DNA of 10,902 bases from the IMG/VR virus record IMGVR_UViG_2531839668_000016; one strand, 5' to 3'. Below, piece by piece: positions 406-10,902 of this stretch. Positions within the stretch are counted from its first letter, which is position 1. Every line of letters starts with the position of its first letter. The DNA is from a virus. Taxonomy: Duplodnaviria; Heunggongvirae; Uroviricota; Caudoviricetes. The translations under genes and the position numbers were made by a program. The notes beneath the pieces were generated by a model. That model was not told the DNA's origin. It did no database searches and saw only the letters and a list, made by a program, of their open reading frames with translations.

Positions 406-620
406 CTAAAGTTGGATACTTAAGAAATGCTTCATAATTCAGTAAGGCATTAGCATAATGGAAATAAAAGTGCAGAGACTATCTCTATGGATGATTAATA
501 CTGTCTTTTTATTGTCACCCATAAATAATCACCAGACTAATACTATCAACTTGATATTTGAAATGTGATCACTTGACTTTTGATACGTTATTTTATAACG
601 GTTAACATATTTATAAAAAC

Positions 621-643: not shown

Positions 644-1036
644 TCAATACTTAACGCACATGTATTTTGGTTTAGTCATCATCCGGTTATATGTATTTTA
701 GCCAGGAACAGGTTAAATCATTCCTATATAACTCAAAAATTGAAACCTTATTCTCATGTCATGCTTATATTCATTATTATCGTTATATAAAAAGGCAACC
801 ATAATGTTTAGCAAATTGGCACAAAGTAGCATAAAGGCTATGTTTTAATTACAGGATGTTCAGTCATTTGAATGTATAACATTATAGCTAAACAAATCTA
901 AAACGAAGTCAATAATTTATTGCTTTCACAAAATCTCATTTTGTTTAACATCCATTGAGATTCCTTGCTTTAAATTTTATTTTATATAAGCCATCATTTT
1001 AATTAATTTATTTTTTGAGGGGGGTAATATACTCAT

Positions 1037-1105
1037 ATGCAAAATCAAGAAATAAACATCCTAATGAACCATATTAAATACCGTGGGATAAGACATAACA
1101 AATGA
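1037..1105 (+). CDS. 22-codon upstream ORF ([22 protein letters not shown]) whose stop overlaps the iraM start (ATGA)
   Basis: ATG at 1037 preceded by a GAGGGGGG purine-rich stretch. The TGA at 1103-1105 overlaps the iraM ATG at 1102-1104. Candidate leader peptide only. Confidence 0.3.
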
Positions 1106-2427: not shown

Positions 2428-3513
2428 CTATTGCCAGCAATTGTTTTTAATTGCTTTAGCATCTACCGTCATATCTACTGTAGCAAAATGGATCTTATGT
2501 CCCTGAGTGACAACATACTCATTAAGCATATAGCCAACAGCTGGATGAAGTAGAAGACCAGCGGCATTGAGCGAAAGCGGATCCGTCTTGTTCTCCTGTG
2601 TTCTAAGGTAGGTATATAGCTGATAAATATAGCCATTACGTAGTGATTGCTCCCGATGCCAACCCTTTGTCAGAATCGAATTAAATTTGGTATCGATAAT
2701 AATACGCCGCTGGGCAGTCTTGTGTTCCAGAATAATGTCTGACTTCATTGTCGGGAAAATCTCTGCACTACCTGCACTTTGATCGCTCAACGCCCATTTC
2801 AGCTCTTTCCCTGCAGAGACCTGCCAAGTTGTTTTGGCAAGGTGTACACGATATAAGCCAGCGATACCTTTTTCAAATAGTCTTCTCATCCAGTAAAGGT
2901 TATTTGAGGGCGCAGGTAAAAGATATTGGCCTTGATCTTCGGTCGGCATCAGCAGTTCAAAAGCTAATCGTGCGGCATCGACCATCGGTTTATCTGCGGC
3001 ATCATGGCGTCCAAAACGCCACACTGAGGGTAATTCGCGGGGGGCAGGATATCCTCCATTTATCCCCTCACGGCGAAGTGATATTGCCATAAAATGGCAA
3101 TCTGCCGCCAAAGACGGTTTCACTATGATTGAGGCCAGACGTTCTAACGCACAGCGAACATAGCGATTTCGGGGGGTGTTGAGGGTTATGTCTTGAAAAT
3201 GGCAGGCAACCTGTCCCCGTTCCAGCAGTTGATGACTGGCAGTATACAGTATGTCAATGCGCCCTCTCACCCGGTTCAGGGCCGCATGACAAGTTTGGTA
3301 TCCCATATTTAAATTGCGACGTCGGCGCAGCGTAATCTCATGAAGGAGGATTGTCGCCACCAGGTCGGGGATTTCTGCTGGGTTATCTTCTACTGCGATC
3401 TGATTGCGCCCTAACTGGCGAAACAGATCTGAAGCGTACAGCATCAGCATCCAGATATTTCGCATGGGAATACGTGATGCTGTATGTTGCTCACTCCCGG
3501 TTATTGTCGTCAT
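2428..3513 (-). CDS. McrC-like nuclease subunit of a McrBC-type (type IV, modification-dependent) restriction system
   Basis: 361 aa. Its ATG overlaps the stop of the upstream McrB-like gene (ATGA at 3510-3513). Size is similar to McrC (348 aa), and the C-terminal region has a PD-(D/E)xK-like stretch (DIILEHK...IIIDTKF). Confidence 0.65.
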   Translation of the reverse strand: MTTITGSEQHTASRIPMRNIWMLMLYASDLFRQLGRNQIAVEDNPAEIPDLVATILLHEITLRRRRNLNMGYQTCHAALNRVRGRIDILYTASHQLLERGQVACHFQDITLNTPRNRYVRCALERLASIIVKPSLAADCHFMAISLRREGINGGYPAPRELPSVWRFGRHDAADKPMVDAARLAFELLMPTEDQGQYLLPAPSNNLYWMRRLFEKGIAGLYRVHLAKTTWQVSAGKELKWALSDQSAGSAEIFPTMKSDIILEHKTAQRRIIIDTKFNSILTKGWHREQSLRNGYIYQLYTYLRTQENKTDPLSLNAAGLLLHPAVGYMLNEYVVTQGHKIHFATVDMTVDAKAIKNNCWQ

Positions 3514-5492
3514 TTTGCTAATAACACTTTTCTGGCTTCATCGACTTTATTTGGAGCATCGAACCAATATTCGGCGAGCAAAGGGCAGATCTCTGTATCA
3601 ACGACTTGTTCATACCAAGCCTGGGCATCGTTGATTTTTTGGCCGATAGCTGGGGTGACATAGCTGTGACCGATACAAAACTGTGGTCCTAAGGTAACAT
3701 CTTTTGCCAGCATATCGTTTAATACCGTCAGTCGAGATTTGATGAATGCTAACATGTCAAAATCAATTGCGTAATTATAATTTACCCAGTTTCTCCACGC
3801 GTCATTAAAAGCTGGCTTTAGATCGATAAACGCGAAACGACGGCGCAGCGCTAGGTCAAGTAGTGCGAGTGAGCGGTCTGCAATATTCATCGTACCGATG
3901 ATATATAGATTCTCAGGAATGTATATTTTTTCATCAGCATTTTTAGGATAGGAAAGAGATAATGCCTCAGTCGGCGTGCGTTTATCTGCTTCCATCAACG
4001 TGAGTGTTTCACCGAAGATTTGCGCCGGATTGCCACGATTAATCTCTTCAATTATCACCACATATTTCGAGGTAGGATTATTGACTGCAGTTTTGATTGC
4101 ATTTACAAAAGGTCCATCAATTAGCGTCAATTGCCCTTCTTTACCTGGACGCCAGCCTCGAATAAAGTCTTCGTAAGAGAGGTTCGGGTGAAATTGCACC
4201 GCGCTAATACGCTCAGGTGCTTTTTCTCCCATCAAGCAGTACGCCAGACGTCGCGCTAACCAAGTTTTTCCAGTTCCGGGTGGTCCTTGTAATATCAGGT
4301 TTTTCTTGTCGATCAGGCGCTGAAGTGTGAGTTGGATCTTAGCCTCTTCCAAGAAACAGCCATCCTGCACCAGATGACTGATGTCATAAGGAACGTGGGT
4401 GAGTTTTGGCAACAGCGCACTCTCTTCGACAGTTTCCTCAGTTATCGTCTGGGATTCGTTTTTCTCAAAATTCAGGTATTCATAATTTCCGGACTCGAGG
4501 GACTTTAACTCATCATCATTGCATAGTTTCTGTAGATAAAAGTAGATTGAGCTTGTAACAGTTTTGCTCTCAGGATGCTCTACCTTGAATACGTCCAAGT
4601 AGTTTTCTTCCAACTCCGAAGCAGTGAAATAAGGGCCATTTTTTTTCAGGCATAACGCCTTAATTTTATTCAGTAAAGAGGCTTTCCACGTTCTATTTGC
4701 CACCTCATCTTTAGACTGGCTAAGATCTGTATTCCACGCTGATAAGGAAAGTTCTGGGAAAGAATGAACCGGATAGTTTGGTTGGGTAAAGACCTCGTTC
4801 AGCGCCCGCATAAGACTCAGGTAACTTTGTCCACTACAGCGACCTTTTGCCCCGTTTTTAATGATCTTAATGTTTAACACTGTCTGAATGTAATACTGCG
4901 ACTGGCTATCTAAAGTGGGGTAGAACCAAGGACGGGTCCAGTACAACCCCATGGTGAGATTCCAACCGACATTCATTACTGTAGAAGCGATGTCATATGC
5001 GGCAGTGAAGTCTGCAGAGTTAGTATTCTGGTTATCCGCAAAGATCATTGCCTGTGAGAACATTTCCCACAAGCATTCAATGTCATTAGGGTCGCGTGAC
5101 TTTTCATAACCAAAGAACCAAGATTTTTGGTTATTCAACAGAGGGATTCCGGCAAAGGAGTCAGGAATCGGTTCGTTCACGCCCAACAAATTCGCTAGCT
5201 TGGCAGCAATAATTTTGCGATTGCTGTCGGTCAAGTTACGATTGAACAAGCCCATAGTAGTAAACGGACAAATGTCTTTTAAGGGAAAGATCTCTCCCAT
5301 AATAGATTTGTCCTGCAGATGGGACATTCCTTCCACACCCGAGGCAATTAGATGAATACCTTTGACTAATTCATCTCTACGATTTCGCCAAGTCAGTAAC
5401 GCGTTGGCAAAAGCCTCATAAAAACTAGCCCAAGCAAACTTGCCATCATGTTCTGCTGTATCCACGGGAACTCCATTATACTTGTTGAGCAA
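3510..5492 (-). CDS. McrB-family AAA+ GTPase with a large uncharacterised N-terminal domain (~390 aa)
   Basis: Walker A GPPGTGKT at aa 403-410 (nt 4263-4286). VVIIEEINRGN...FGETLTLMEADKR and the IIGTMNIADRSLALLDLALRRRFAFIDL block closely parallel E. coli McrB (FIIDEINRAN..., MNTADRSLAVVDYALRRRF). The N-terminal 390 aa are unrelated to the E. coli McrB DNA-binding domain. The annotated start is TTG; an in-frame GTG 9 codons downstream has a better SD. Confidence 0.8.
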   Translation of the reverse strand: MLNKYNGVPVDTAEHDGKFAWASFYEAFANALLTWRNRRDELVKGIHLIASGVEGMSHLQDKSIMGEIFPLKDICPFTTMGLFNRNLTDSNRKIIAAKLANLLGVNEPIPDSFAGIPLLNNQKSWFFGYEKSRDPNDIECLWEMFSQAMIFADNQNTNSADFTAAYDIASTVMNVGWNLTMGLYWTRPWFYPTLDSQSQYYIQTVLNIKIIKNGAKGRCSGQSYLSLMRALNEVFTQPNYPVHSFPELSLSAWNTDLSQSKDEVANRTWKASLLNKIKALCLKKNGPYFTASELEENYLDVFKVEHPESKTVTSSIYFYLQKLCNDDELKSLESGNYEYLNFEKNESQTITEETVEESALLPKLTHVPYDISHLVQDGCFLEEAKIQLTLQRLIDKKNLILQGPPGTGKTWLARRLAYCLMGEKAPERISAVQFHPNLSYEDFIRGWRPGKEGQLTLIDGPFVNAIKTAVNNPTSKYVVIIEEINRGNPAQIFGETLTLMEADKRTPTEALSLSYPKNADEKIYIPENLYIIGTMNIADRSLALLDLALRRRFAFIDLKPAFNDAWRNWVNYNYAIDFDMLAFIKSRLTVLNDMLAKDVTLGPQFCIGHSYVTPAIGQKINDAQAWYEQVVDTEICPLLAEYWFDAPNKVDEARKVLLAK

Positions 5493-5825: not shown

Positions 5826-6409
5826 TTATTCCATAACAGGGATTGCAGGCCACTCAATATCAGGTGCAGTTGATGTATCAACACGATTCAGCAACACCCG
5901 ATACTTCTTCCAGGCTTCAAGCAACGAGGTTTCTTCCTCCGTTGCGATTTCCAGATCTGCAGCATCCTGAAGCGGGGCAATATGCTCACTGGCTACCTGC
6001 ATCAGGCTGTTTTTGTTTCTTCCGCCTCCCGGATCCGGAACAGTTTTTCTGCTTCCGTATCCTTCACCCAGGCTGTGCCGTTCCACTTCTGAAACTCCCC
6101 TTCCGGGGATAACCAGGTGATATTTTCCGGTAGAGGTCCGAGTTCAGAAATAAATAACGAGTCGCCGGAAGCCACGTCATAGACGGTTTTTCCCCGATGA
6201 TCTTCAACGAGATGCCACGATGCCTCATCACTGTTGAAAACAGCCACGAAGCCTACCGGAATATCTGGCGGTGCAATATAGGTACTGTTTGCTGGCAGAC
6301 CTGTATGAGGCGGAATATATGCGTCACCTTCACCAATAAATTCATTAGTTCCGGCCAGCAGATTATAAATTTTTATGGTCCGTGGTTGTTCACTCATTCT
6401 GAATGCCAT
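5826..6409 (-). pseudogene. tfa: Tail fibre assembly protein (Tfa, lambda/e14 TfaE-like), frameshifted
   Basis: Two overlapping ORFs in different frames (6002-6409 and 5826-6086) together give [15 protein letters not shown]...REAEETK / [22 protein letters not shown]...[10 protein letters not shown], i.e. a full Tfa. The frame break is in an A-run at 6008-6017. Confidence 0.8.
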
Positions 6410-6632: not shown

Positions 6633-6865
6633 AGATCCACCCCGTAAATCCAGTCAGTGTTTGTCAGGTCGAGTTTTGGTTTGCCGACTGTCACGCCAGC
6701 CTGTTGCTTGTTCCGGTTGATTTCGAGCTGGGTCCACTTGTCGCGGAGTTTGGCCGGACTCAGCACGTTACCGGACCAGAAGTTGTCCTGGCAGGCCCAG
6801 CGGAACAGTACACACATGTCGCGGTGGTTACGTCCATCACGTTCACGCATCAGACGGATATCGTT
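6629..6865 (-). pseudogene. O: C-terminal fragment of lambda replication initiator O
   Basis: ...[56 protein letters not shown] matches the lambda O C-terminus. Upstream, the reading frame runs into antisense exo sequence. Confidence 0.75.
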
Positions 6866-7519
6866 ACCGGGATCGACGTGAGAGCTGTCGAACAGGGGGA
6901 TGATGCGTGGCACAAATTACGGCTCGGCGTCATCACCGCTTCAGAAGTTCACAACGTGATAGCAAAGCCCCGCTCAGGAAAGAAGTGGCCTGACATGAAA
7001 ATGTCCTACTTCCACACCCTGCTTGCCGAGGTTTGCACCGGTGTGGCTCCGGAAGTTAACGCTAAAGCACTGGCCTGGGGAAAACAGTACGAGAACGACG
7101 CCAGAACCCTGTTTGAGTTCACTTCCAGCGTAAATGTTATTGAATCCCCGATCATCTATCGCGACGAAAGTATGCGCACCGCCTGCTCTCCCGATGGTTT
7201 ATGCAGTGACGGCAATGGCCTTGAACTGAAATGCCCGTTTACCTCCCGGGATTTCATGAAGTTCCGGCTCGGTGGTTTCGAGGCCATAAAGTCGGCTTAC
7301 ATGGCCCAGGTGCAGTACAGCATGTGGGTGACGCGAAAAGATGCCTGGTACTTTGCCAACTATGACCCGCGTATGAAGCGTGAAGGCCTGCATTATGTCG
7401 TGGTTGAGCGGGATGAAAAGTACATGGCGAATTTTGACGAGATGGTGCCGGAGTTCATCGAAAAAATGGACGAGGCACTGGCTGAAATTGGTTTTGTATT
7501 TGGGGAGCAATGGCGATGA
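6866..7519 (+). pseudogene. exo: Lambda exonuclease (Red-alpha, Exo), 5'-truncated (lacks ~first 9 codons)
   Basis: [56 protein letters not shown]...[11 protein letters not shown] is near-identical to lambda Exo from residue ~11 to the end. The upstream 55 codons of the 6704 ORF are antisense to the O fragment and are not Exo. Confidence 0.85.
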
Positions 7520-7674
7520 CGCATCCTCACGATAATATCCGGGTAGGCGCGATCACTTTCGTCTACTCCATTACAAAGCGAGGCTGGGTATTTCCCGGCC
7601 TTTCTGTTATCAGAAATCCACTGAAAGCACAGCGGCTGGCTGAGAAGATAAATAACAAACAGGAGGATATATGA
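7516..7674 (+). CDS. Small ORF (52 aa, [52 protein letters not shown]), coupled on both sides
   Basis: Its ATG overlaps the exo stop (ATGA at 7516-7519), and its TGA overlaps the ATG of the DGQHR gene (ATGA at 7671-7674). Positionally it corresponds to the small orfs following exo in lambda. Confidence 0.5.
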
Positions 7675-8735
7675 GTCAGGTTGGTAATCATTCATTCGAA
7701 TTTCCGGCATCGCAAGGTGTACAGGGTGGTACTGTTACACTCTTCCTTACCATACCAGGAAGATCGCTGGCTCGTTTCCTCGCTTCAGATAATTACGGCC
7801 ATACACTGGAACGCTCTCAGCGAGAAATTAATCCAAATCGAGTACGAAAATTTTTAAATTATCTCACTAACGCAGACTCAAGAAATGAGCCTTTTATCAT
7901 TCCCCCTCTCGTAGGTAACTGTGATTCGAATATAGAATTTGTACCGTTTGGCAACACAAATGTTGGTATAGCCAGAATTCCCCTCGACGCCGAAATAAAA
8001 CTTTTTGATGGTCAACATCGTGCAGCTGGCATTGAGATATTTTGCCGAAGTTCCCCATCAACGCTCATGGTTCCCATGATGCTTACAATGAATCTGCCGC
8101 TAAAAACCCGGCAGCAGTTCTTTTCGGACATAAATAACAACGTTTCTAAGCCATCAGCGACCATCAATATGGCGTATAACGGCCGGGATGATATTGCTCA
8201 GGGAATGATATCCTTCCTGACCCAACATACTGTATTTGCCGATATAACCGATTTTGAACACAACGTAGTGCCATTAAAAAGTAATATGTGGGTGAGTTTC
8301 AAGGCACTCACTGATGCAACGTCAAAGTTCGCTAGGAACGGCAATCAACAACTTGAAATGGGATATATAGAATCTGTCTGGGAGGCATGGATTACACTAA
8401 CTCAGATTGACTCAATCCGACATGGTGTACACCACGCTACGTACAAGCGCGATTATATTCAGTTCCATGGAGTAATGATTAACGCTTTCGGTTTTGCGGT
8501 TCAACAGATGATGGTTAATCATTCCATCGCAGAAATAACTTCTATGATCGAAAAACTATGTGCAACTACCAGCTCTGCAGAAAGAGAGGATTTTTTTCTG
8601 ATGGATAACTGGGCGGGGATCTGCACGAAAGCCAGCCAGGAAAAACTATCTGTTATTGCCAATGTGGCAGCGCAGAAAGCAGCAGCAAACAGACTGATAC
8701 AAGCTTTTACCAAAGGAAGTCTGGAAACAACTTAA
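7671..8735 (+). CDS. DGQHR-domain protein (DndB-like, ParB/Srx-like fold)
   Basis: 354 aa with an exact DGQHR motif (KLFDGQHRAAGIE, aa 113-117, nt 8007-8021). SD CAGGAGGA lies upstream, and the gene is translationally coupled to the preceding small ORF. Confidence 0.75.
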   Translation: MSQVGNHSFEFPASQGVQGGTVTLFLTIPGRSLARFLASDNYGHTLERSQREINPNRVRKFLNYLTNADSRNEPFIIPPLVGNCDSNIEFVPFGNTNVGIARIPLDAEIKLFDGQHRAAGIEIFCRSSPSTLMVPMMLTMNLPLKTRQQFFSDINNNVSKPSATINMAYNGRDDIAQGMISFLTQHTVFADITDFEHNVVPLKSNMWVSFKALTDATSKFARNGNQQLEMGYIESVWEAWITLTQIDSIRHGVHHATYKRDYIQFHGVMINAFGFAVQQMMVNHSIAEITSMIEKLCATTSSAEREDFFLMDNWAGICTKASQEKLSVIANVAAQKAAANRLIQAFTKGSLETT

Positions 8736-9533: not shown

Positions 9534-9770
9534 ATGTCTCGACTAATCACTTTACAGGACTGGGCTAAAGAAGAATTTGGGGACTTAGCACCAAGTGAGC
9601 GAGTTCTGAAAAAATACGCGCAAGGGAAAATGATGGCCCCACCCGCTATAAAAGTTGGTCGCTACTGGATGATTGACCGAAATTCCCGTTTTGTAGGAAC
9701 GCTTGCAGAACCGCAACTCCCAATAAACGCAAACCCAAAACTCCAACGGATAATCGCTGATGGCTGCTAG
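9534..9770 (+). CDS. xis: Excisionase (Xis-like recombination directionality factor)
   Basis: 78 aa with strong SD AAGAGGAGGA. It sits immediately upstream of int and overlaps it by 11 nt. The N-terminal LITLQDWA...PPAIKVGRYW resembles lambda Xis (YLTLQEW...PPPVKDGREY). Confidence 0.65.
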   Translation: MSRLITLQDWAKEEFGDLAPSERVLKKYAQGKMMAPPAIKVGRYWMIDRNSRFVGTLAEPQLPINANPKLQRIIADGC

Positions 9771-10902
9771 ACCCCGATCTCACAAAATCTCTATACCCAA
9801 TTTATATTGCAAATTAGATAAGCGAACCGGAAAGGTATATTGGCAATACAAACATCCACTATCCGGTCGTTTTCATAGCTTAGGAACTGATGAGAATGAA
9901 GCAAAACAAGTTGCTACTGAAGCAAATACCATTATTGCTGAACAACGTACCAGACAAATATTAAGCGTCAATGAGCGTCTGGAAAGAATGAAAGGCAGGC
10001 GCTCAGACATTACGGTGACAGAATGGCTTGATAAATATATTTCTATCCAGGAGGACAGGCTGCAACATAATGAACTAAGACCCAACTCCTATCGGCAAAA
10101 AGGCAAACCCATTCGTCTTTTCCGTGAGCATTGTGGAATGCAACACCTCAAGGATATTACCGCACTTGATATTGCCGAAATAATTGATGCTGTAAAGGCT
10201 GAAGGTCATAACAGGATGGCGCAAGTCGTGAGAATGGTGTTGATCGACGTCTTCAAAGAAGCACAACACGCAGGACATGTTCCGCCAGGATTTAACCCTG
10301 CGCAGGCAACAAAACAACCGCGAAATCGAGTAAACCGCCAAAGATTGTCACTGCTCGAATGGCAGGCAATATTTGAAAGCGTAAGCAGACGGCAGCCCTA
10401 TTTAAAATGCGGCATGCTACTTGCTCTTGTTACTGGACAACGTTTAGGCGATATCTGCAATTTGAAATTCTCTGATATATGGGACGACATGTTGCACATT
10501 ACTCAGGAAAAAACCGGTTCAAAACTTGCTATTCCGCTTAACCTGAAATGCGATGCTCTGAATATTACCCTTCGTGAAGTTATATCTCAGTGCAGGGATG
10601 CTGTTGTTAGTAAATATCTGGTCCATTACCGTCACACTACCTCTCAAGCAAACAGAGGAGACCAGGTTTCTGCAAATACTCTGACAACGGCTTTTAAAAA
10701 GGCCCGGGAAAAATGTGGCATAAAATGGGAGCAAGGAACTGCGCCCACATTTCATGAGCAGCGATCTCTCTCAGAACGGTTATATCGGGAACAGGGTCTG
10801 GATACGCAAAAGTTGTTAGGCCATAAATCCAGAAAAATGACCGACCGATACAATGATGATCGTGGTAAAGACTGGATTATCGTAGATATCAAAACAGCAT
10901 AG
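9760..10902 (+). CDS. int: Lambda-family tyrosine integrase
   Basis: 380 aa. N-terminus MAARPRSHKISIPNLY resembles lambda Int MGRRRSHERRDLPPNLY. C-terminal catalytic region has GQRLGD, HEQRSLSERLY, LGHKS and RYNDDRGKDW, paralleling lambda HELRSLSARLY...LGHKS...YRDDRGREW. Confidence 0.9.
   Translation: MAARPRSHKISIPNLYCKLDKRTGKVYWQYKHPLSGRFHSLGTDENEAKQVATEANTIIAEQRTRQILSVNERLERMKGRRSDITVTEWLDKYISIQEDRLQHNELRPNSYRQKGKPIRLFREHCGMQHLKDITALDIAEIIDAVKAEGHNRMAQVVRMVLIDVFKEAQHAGHVPPGFNPAQATKQPRNRVNRQRLSLLEWQAIFESVSRRQPYLKCGMLLALVTGQRLGDICNLKFSDIWDDMLHITQEKTGSKLAIPLNLKCDALNITLREVISQCRDAVVSKYLVHYRHTTSQANRGDQVSANTLTTAFKKAREKCGIKWEQGTAPTFHEQRSLSERLYREQGLDTQKLLGHKSRKMTDRYNDDRGKDWIIVDIKTA

Follow-up and report, generated by a model that had tools for sequence, protein, structure and literature searches.

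A short open reading frame overlapping the start of iraM in Escherichia coli is very probably the remnant of a deleted YmgB/AriR-family gene and may be coupled to iraM translation

The iraM locus and its upstream open reading frame

The window (the whole stretch of DNA analysed here, 10,902 nucleotides) contains the E. coli ycgX-ymgL-ymgK-iraM-icdC region (Table 1). The iraM gene is recognized as an open reading frame whose product carries the IraM annotation across thousands of genomes of E. coli. It is preceded by an ATG-initiated upstream open reading frame (uORF) of 22 codons. As the sequence-only reading had reported, the TGA of the uORF (1103-1105) overlaps the ATG of iraM (1102-1104) within the tetranucleotide ATGA (1102-1105). 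There is no alternative in-frame start codon 5' of the uORF ATG. Between ycgX and iraM, the annotation of MG1655 includes ymgK and ymgL alone, and the uORF carries no annotation in NC_000913.3. Both small genes reside on the same strand as iraM, and their protein products have been validated by epitope tagging (VanOrsdel et al. 2018). Read-through from ymgL and ymgK could supply RNA over the uORF when iraM is uninduced.

The literature documents that iraM (also called ycgW) depends on PhoPQ and is induced by low Mg2+, which agrees with the claim made from the sequence, and the uORF is located 3' of a promoter region with a PhoP-box-like element. The PhoP consensus is (T/G)GTTTA-N5-(T/G)GTTTA (PMC5775216). 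The candidate direct repeat in the window overlaps the -35 element of a sigma-70 promoter-like site. Transcription is predicted to start near 988-992, which would yield a leader of ~110 nt containing the uORF. The Cappable-seq supplements list no start position within MG1655 1212000-1212199.

Past the icdC fragment, the window is occupied up to position 10902 by an e14-like element. Its cargo is unlike that of the K-12 e14 element, which has mcrA.

Table 1. Positions of features in the window, with the intact gene of other loci in the last row
Feature	Position	Strand	Remarks
ymgL (36 aa)	458-568	+	5' of iraM promoter region
ymgK (14 aa)	804-848	+	5' of iraM promoter region
PhoP-box-like direct repeat, TGTTTA-acatc-CATTGA	942-958	+	candidate site; half-sites match consensus at 6/6 and 3/6
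Sigma-70 promoter-like site, TTGAGA, 17 nt, TATTTT	955-983	+	consensus scan, 9/12 matches
G-rich SD-like tract of uORF, GAGGGGGGT	1017-1025	+	gap to uORF ATG 10-12 nt
uORF, 22 codons, ATG start (1037-1039)	1037-1105	+	MG1655 complement 1212000-1212068 including stop
uORF nt 1-34, codons 1-11	1037-1070	+	homologous to codons 1-11 of 84-aa gene, L087 1202-1235
433-bp deletion scar	1070-1071		missing L087 1236-1668; ATTAAA microhomology adjoins junction
uORF nt 35-69, iraM-proximal leader	1071-1105	+	homologous to L087 1669-1703
iraM, anti-adapter protein IraM, 107 aa	1102-1425	+	ORF
icdC fragment	1528-1680	minus	3' of iraM
McrC-like protein	2428-3513	minus	e14-like element
McrB-like AAA protein	3510-5492	minus	e14-like element
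Tail-fibre assembly fragment	6002-6409		e14-like element
YqaJ-like recombinase-domain ORF	6704-7519		e14-like element
DndB-like protein	7671-8735		e14-like element
Lambda-type integrase	9760-10902		e14-like element
Intact 84-aa YmgB/AriR-family gene	L087 1202-1456; L060 575-829	minus in L060	also in L088, L089 and L090

Ribosome profiling of the uORF

Published profiling data, of the kind that the sequence-only reading had proposed as a check on its claim, indicate that ribosomes initiate at the uORF. Fesenko, Sahakyan, Shabalina and Koonin 2024 (PMC11188072) provide a third-party re-analysis of Ribo-RET (retapamulin) data from cultures that were not Mg2+-starved, and their Table S4 includes exactly this uORF at NC_000913.3 1212002-1212068 on the minus strand. 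In MG1655, the retapamulin dataset gives 113 start-site reads and 28 footprint reads with a coverage of 0.91, and a separate footprint dataset gives 19 reads with a coverage of 0.56. The allelic uORF of BL21 has 283 start-site reads, 466 footprint reads and a coverage of 1.0. For scale, the start-site reads in the same table are 202 for thrL, 129 for rmf and 21 for hisL. Thus, initiating-ribosome reads fall on the exact uORF ATG in two strains, and they imply that an RNA is present there. Among the passages of Fesenko et al. that were searched, there is no Onc112 row for the uORF. Nor does it appear in the searched portion, possibly incomplete, of the Stringer et al. 2021 supplement or in the PIRT-seq files. 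On the strength of the published profiling, it is likely that the uORF is genuinely translated.

A literature search found no paper that contains the uORF peptide or that links iraM to a uORF or leader peptide. The uORF is already known as an entry in that supplementary table. We found no description of how it relates to iraM or of where it came from, and in this sense the novelty originally supposed for it stands.

Chance expectation and iraM paralogues

To estimate how often such an overlap might appear by chance, the predicted 112-nt leader (990-1101) was shuffled 20,000 times with its dinucleotide composition preserved. An ATG-initiated frame of at least 22 codons that ends in the iraM ATGA is found in 3.0% of the shuffled sequences, and a frame of any length with this ending is found in 16%. 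By this measure, a chance overlap between the uORF and iraM is moderately unlikely, not striking.

No conserved overlapping uORF was found in iraL, in Stx-prophage copies or in other copies of the iraM family. The upstream regions of prophage-borne and other family members are unrelated, and the iraL leader, which has been mapped, is 32 nt long and has no room for a uORF. The iraL gene of E. albertii (L005, 1430-1504) is preceded by a 24-codon ATG ORF that ends in an ATGA overlap. This ORF was rejected as a conserved uORF and attributed to chance, as its start is located 5' of the iraL transcription start mapped in CFT073. A single-nucleotide difference in another locus (L006) abolishes it. 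This case shows that ATGA overlaps arise easily where a gene begins with ATGAAG.

Origin of the uORF by deletion

The first lead to the origin of the uORF came from two metagenome contigs (L052 and L060) in which a different sequence is located 5' of iraM. In one such contig, an 84-amino-acid ORF starts with MQNQEMNIQ, which is also the N-terminus of the uORF. This 'long' allele is present in 11 of the 5426 complete E. coli genomes, where it forms three sequence groups (100%, ~97.5% and 93% identity). The order is always ycgX, the 84-aa ariR-like gene, 243 nt of spacer, iraM and icd. The 84-aa protein matches PF10798 with an E value of 1.4e-15 over residues 26-83, and its PGAP annotation is 'biofilm development regulator YmgB/AriR family protein'. 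Five nonsynonymous and seven synonymous differences separate the gene among long alleles, which is consistent with a functional gene under constraint. In wlxctx60, one of the 11 genomes, the gene is split into two CDS.

Alignment reveals that the common 'short' allele, which is represented by the window, corresponds to the long allele with 433 bp missing, and the sequences that flank the gap are homologous. The 5' portion common to both alleles comprises the PhoP-box region and the leader together with the first 34 nt of the gene, ATG included. The PhoP-box-like repeat is kept in both alleles; its form in the long allele, TGTTTA-atctc-TGTTGA, has half-sites that match at 6/6 and 5/6 positions. 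Because 433 equals 3n+1, the reading frame shifts at the junction. The other two frames of the iraM-proximal leader would stop 10-25 nt earlier. Only one frame reaches the TGA of the ATGA, so the exact overlap has a prior of roughly one in three.

With high confidence, therefore, the uORF can be regarded as the remnant of a mostly deleted YmgB/AriR-family gene. The sequence-only reading had considered that it could equally be a chance ORF in AT-rich DNA. This proved wrong in detail, since the uORF is the 5' stump of the deleted gene, and its presence is explained by history and not by chance. A deletion is more parsimonious than an insertion because insertion into a 22-codon ORF cannot plausibly create an intact, domain-bearing gene. 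The direction of the change is assigned by parsimony, without an outgroup. In neighbour-joining trees, long alleles cluster when the upstream region is compared and are interspersed among short alleles when iraM is compared. The trees give no clean polarity because this pattern indicates recombination.

The uORF shares its promoter region, ATG and 11 codons with a member of the YmgB/AriR family, another example of which is ariR, in the nearby ycgZ-ymgA-ariR-ymgC cluster. However, only residues 1-11 survive, and PF10798 is not found in the uORF. With all of the domain (residues 26-83) missing, the uORF is a stump of a pseudogene and not a family member.

The ariR-like gene and iraM of the long allele probably share a transcript, since the 243-nt spacer has no terminator-like or promoter-like site on the + strand. 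A 55-codon ORF that ends at the iraM ATGA is open in two long alleles and might have been an ancestral coupled ORF. However, an in-frame TAA interrupts it in the third (L089), and it was therefore dismissed as a chance ORF.

These findings bear on the proposal that the uORF is an untranslated chance ORF and that its profiling reads are noise. ATGA-ending frames are easily obtained in sequence of this type, as the shuffled sequences and the broken E. albertii example illustrate, and the footprint counts in MG1655 are low. However, the start site belongs to a bona fide gene, and the counts at this start are similar to those of validated small genes in two strains with different alleles. We consider the proposal very unlikely.

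Neutral evolution of the uORF peptide

Of the loci compared, 14 come from complete genomes and others from genome collections; a further 69 are metagenome contigs that were anchored on a stretch within iraM that does not vary. Every reasonably covered short-type locus keeps the ATG, the frame and the ATGA overlap. The ORF seems to be disrupted in L055 and L083, but these contigs have ~2x coverage and the changes look like sequencing errors. One locus riddled with indels (L007) was left out. As regards conservation, another check that had been proposed, the uORF is intact in well-covered short alleles and absent from iraL, from prophage-borne iraM paralogues and from the long allele.

The uORF is represented by 11 nucleotide haplotypes among short-type loci. 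Its variable sites across ~80 loci comprise ten nonsynonymous and two synonymous changes, where the random expectation is 149:32. Substitutions that destroy the ORF make up 8.6% of all that are possible, and the absence of any among the 12 observed has a probability of ~0.34. An intact ORF across ~80 loci is thus the neutral expectation. For the same reasons, conservation argues against a functional peptide and is silent with regard to selection for the ORF. The re-analysis by Fesenko et al. assigns the uORF to its 'Intergenic' class and does not include it among the ORFs under purifying selection (dN 0.086, dS 0.098, dN/dS 0.88; PMC11188072). On the basis of the sites counted here and this published ratio, the uORF peptide evolves neutrally.

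The last seven codons are nearly invariant, with no variants in the 14 loci from complete genomes and one (H20Y) among ~80, because they form the translation initiation region of iraM. The same stretch is equally conserved in long alleles, which have no conserved ORF there.

It is most improbable that the uORF is a free-standing gene for a functional microprotein that is co-transcribed with iraM. Ribo-RET signal in two strains (PMC11188072) and the validation of neighbouring YmgK and YmgL might seem to favour such a gene. However, functional small proteins are expected to display purifying selection and cross-species conservation, and the uORF displays neither. The published dN/dS and the 10:2 ratio of sites are those of a neutral sequence, the peptide has no Pfam or NCBIfam match, and half of it is leader that is read out of the ancestral frame.

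Initiation sites and leader structure

The uORF carries a strong Shine-Dalgarno (SD) tract in the window, where pairing of GAGGGGGG with the 3' end of 16S rRNA has a duplex energy of -11.6 kcal/mol. The corresponding values range from -6.8 to -12.1 kcal/mol in short alleles versus -3.7 kcal/mol in long alleles. In contrast, the SD of iraM itself (GUGGGAU / UAAGA) is weak, with a duplex energy of -4.0 kcal/mol. The gap of 10-12 nt between the uORF SD tract and the ATG exceeds optimal spacing.

Homopolymer runs within and adjacent to this tract (1011-1024) are polymorphic in length. The window has T6-GA-G6 and MG1655 has T7-GA-G8, and the G run extends from G7 to G11 in other K-12-type alleles. 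Other variants are GAAGGG(G) in B1-type alleles, TTGGGAG in alleles of the L010/L012 type, and no more than AGG in the long allele. Changes in run length could tune the translation of the uORF and iraM from strain to strain or through slippage. One locus (L017, ~590-650; E. coli 51243816-SK1A) has the unusual leader arrangement G13-TAATATACTCAT-C13-AAATATACTCAT, in which a duplication is flanked by complementary homopolymers. An artefact of long-read assembly at the G tract is the probable cause.

GGA motifs at the uORF SD vary between alleles and are not conserved. A conserved GGA-containing motif is present in the initiation region of iraM, at 1084-1094 in the window (GGGATAAGA) and at ~1679-1690 in L087 (GAAGGATAAGA). 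Its sequence, AAGGAU in the long allele, is similar to the motifs that CsrA binds.

Structure prediction finds nothing notable in the leader. The fold of 985-1140 has an energy of -20.5 kcal/mol and a z score of +0.37. Sequestration of the iraM SD was looked for and not found: a single helix (ACCGUG/CACGGU) brackets the iraM start, and the B1/Shigella allele disrupts it. No Rfam family matches the leader, and the leader has no terminator-like site on the + strand, where the only match is located inside iraM. A riboswitch or other structured RNA in the leader was rejected given the lack of structure signal and of an Rfam match.

Leader peptides that sense signals, such as mgtL, tnaC and the his and trp leaders, rely on a conserved peptide or run of codons together with alternative structures or terminators. 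Neither of these is found for the uORF. In mgtL, conserved codons and alternative RNA structures control transcription elongation, and mgtL is not known to overlap the mgtA start. The uORF resembles mgtL in that it is a short ORF upstream in the leader of a PhoPQ-induced gene, but it has no conserved peptide or structure.

In principle, translation of the uORF might respond to Mg2+ limitation or translation stress and gate iraM in the manner of mgtL and mgtA. The induction of iraM by PhoPQ and low Mg2+, the overlapping stop and start, and the presence of the rare codons ATA, CTA, GGG, ATA and AGA are all compatible with such a design. However, the peptide and most of these codons are not conserved; the common B1/BL21 allele has lost two of the five by changes of ATA to ATG and CTA to CAA. 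The ATA-AGA pair does not vary, but the same holds for long alleles, in which it is outside any conserved ORF. The flat structure statistics, the lack of an Rfam match or leader terminator, and the birth of the ORF through a frame-shifting deletion likewise weigh against sensing, which we regard as quite unlikely. The regulatory leader-peptide layer that the sequence-only reading envisaged for iraM is unsupported by the neutral peptide, the structure calculations and Rfam search, or the distribution among paralogues and long alleles.

Possible coupling of uORF and iraM translation

The explanation to which we incline slightly, taken as a whole, is that the uORF is a translated stump of an AriR-family gene that is coupled to iraM. 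A YmgB/AriR-family gene would once have separated iraM from a PhoP-controlled promoter. One deletion of 433 bp, which nearly all E. coli with iraM now have, would have joined the first 11 codons of that gene to the 35 nt that lead up to and into the iraM start, and with these codons the uORF would have inherited the promoter region, 5' leader, SD tract and ATG of the gene. The shifted frame would by happenstance reach the TGA of the ATGA. Ribosomes load at the inherited start site, as public Ribo-RET data indicate. After 22 codons they would terminate at the AUG of iraM, where some of them would probably re-initiate. Their passage may leave the weak initiation region of iraM occupied and accessible. 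The uORF initiation site would then largely determine how much IraM is made, through constitutive coupling and not through signal sensing. This mechanism would be the ordinary coupling of overlapping stop and start codons that is known from operons and from iraD-ORF27.

The closest parallel is iraD, an unrelated gene that also encodes an RssB anti-adaptor. There, the stop codon of the 27-aa ORF27 overlaps the iraD start, and mutants with the uORF start changed to a stop proved coupling (Park et al. 2017, mBio, PMC5574718). A hairpin that sequesters an SD has been mapped in the iraD leader, and its opening by translation of the uORF is one of two routes of coupling there. CsrA, which represses iraD through the uORF, binds to GGA sites located at the SD of this uORF (PMC5574718). 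The two leaders share a short uORF (27 versus 22 codons), an overlap of stop and start, poor initiation at the main gene and a translated uORF. For iraM, the overlap is kept in adequately covered short alleles, and the support for uORF translation comes from the published profiling (PMC11188072). In contrast to iraD, where mutants established coupling, coupling at iraM is proposed from sequence and profiling. The iraM leader also differs in having no significant predicted structure and no conserved GGA motifs at the uORF SD.

Other E. coli examples indicate that the outcome of such arrangements varies. Upstream small ORFs can alter downstream translation either way, up or down (Weaver et al. 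2019). The pssL, yoaL, baxL and argL ORFs described there, like genes coupled by AUGA in operons, have a 4-nt ATGA or an upstream small-ORF overlap, and like the iraM uORF they were seen by initiation-site profiling. They differ in that fusions have validated them, whereas the iraM uORF is a deletion remnant with a profiling signal alone.

The prospects that coupling makes a measurable, positive contribution to IraM synthesis are evenly balanced. Coupling is favoured by the pairing of a strong uORF SD with a weak iraM SD, by the greater strength of the uORF SD in short alleles than in long alleles, and by the iraD-ORF27 precedent. It is disfavoured by the long SD spacing, by the unstructured leader and by the fact that upstream small ORFs are sometimes repressive.

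A rather unlikely alternative, in our view, is that the stump is an inert relic that is translated by way of its kept start site while iraM initiates independently, so that the uORF has an unmeasurable or mildly repressive effect. A neutral peptide and an ORF whose maintenance is within chance are what an inert relic would present. Moreover, iraM is expressed from the long allele, which has no conserved overlapping ORF, as the interruption of the 55-codon ORF in L089 demonstrates. The AT-rich leader has no structure that needs melting, and upstream small ORFs can lower downstream expression (Weaver et al. 2019). However, a relic of this kind would leave iraM to depend on its own weak SD, positioned behind a uORF SD that is stronger than that of the ancestral-type allele. 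An exact ATGA overlap also usually yields some re-initiation, as in iraD-ORF27 (PMC5574718).

Implications and additional observations

Through IraM, PhoPQ signalling (low Mg2+, acid and antimicrobial peptides) is connected to the stability of RpoS, and IraM overexpression has a fitness cost. A more speculative extension of the coupling proposal, which we consider unlikely, is that the 433-bp deletion rewired this connector between PhoPQ and RpoS. An AriR-family gene would have been lost, and iraM would have been placed under a relic start site. The G-tract SD, which is AGG in the ancestral-type allele and ranges from G4 to G11 in derived ones, might then act as a strain-variable, slippage-prone 'rheostat' of IraM output and hence of RpoS stabilisation under Mg2+ starvation.

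If IraM synthesis is coupled to a uORF as IraD synthesis is, a post-transcriptional layout would be common to two of the three anti-adaptors of K-12. In that event, iraM-lacZ fusions and engineered constructs would have to include the uORF or deliberately exclude it. The proposed mechanism of the uORF is not surprising, but the locus is a neat case of gene decay. Its remnant origin provides an explanation for a neutral, translated 'intergenic small ORF' by way of gene decay and not de novo birth. The identification of rare E. coli lineages that have the ancestral-type arrangement of ariR-like gene and iraM makes a direct comparison possible.

A GC-rich hairpin with T-runs (AACGGGCGT...ACGCCCGTT; 1482-1504) is located between the convergent iraM and icdC and was scored as a minus-strand terminator. 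It is probably a bidirectional terminator. An element similar to this hairpin is found at 622-634.
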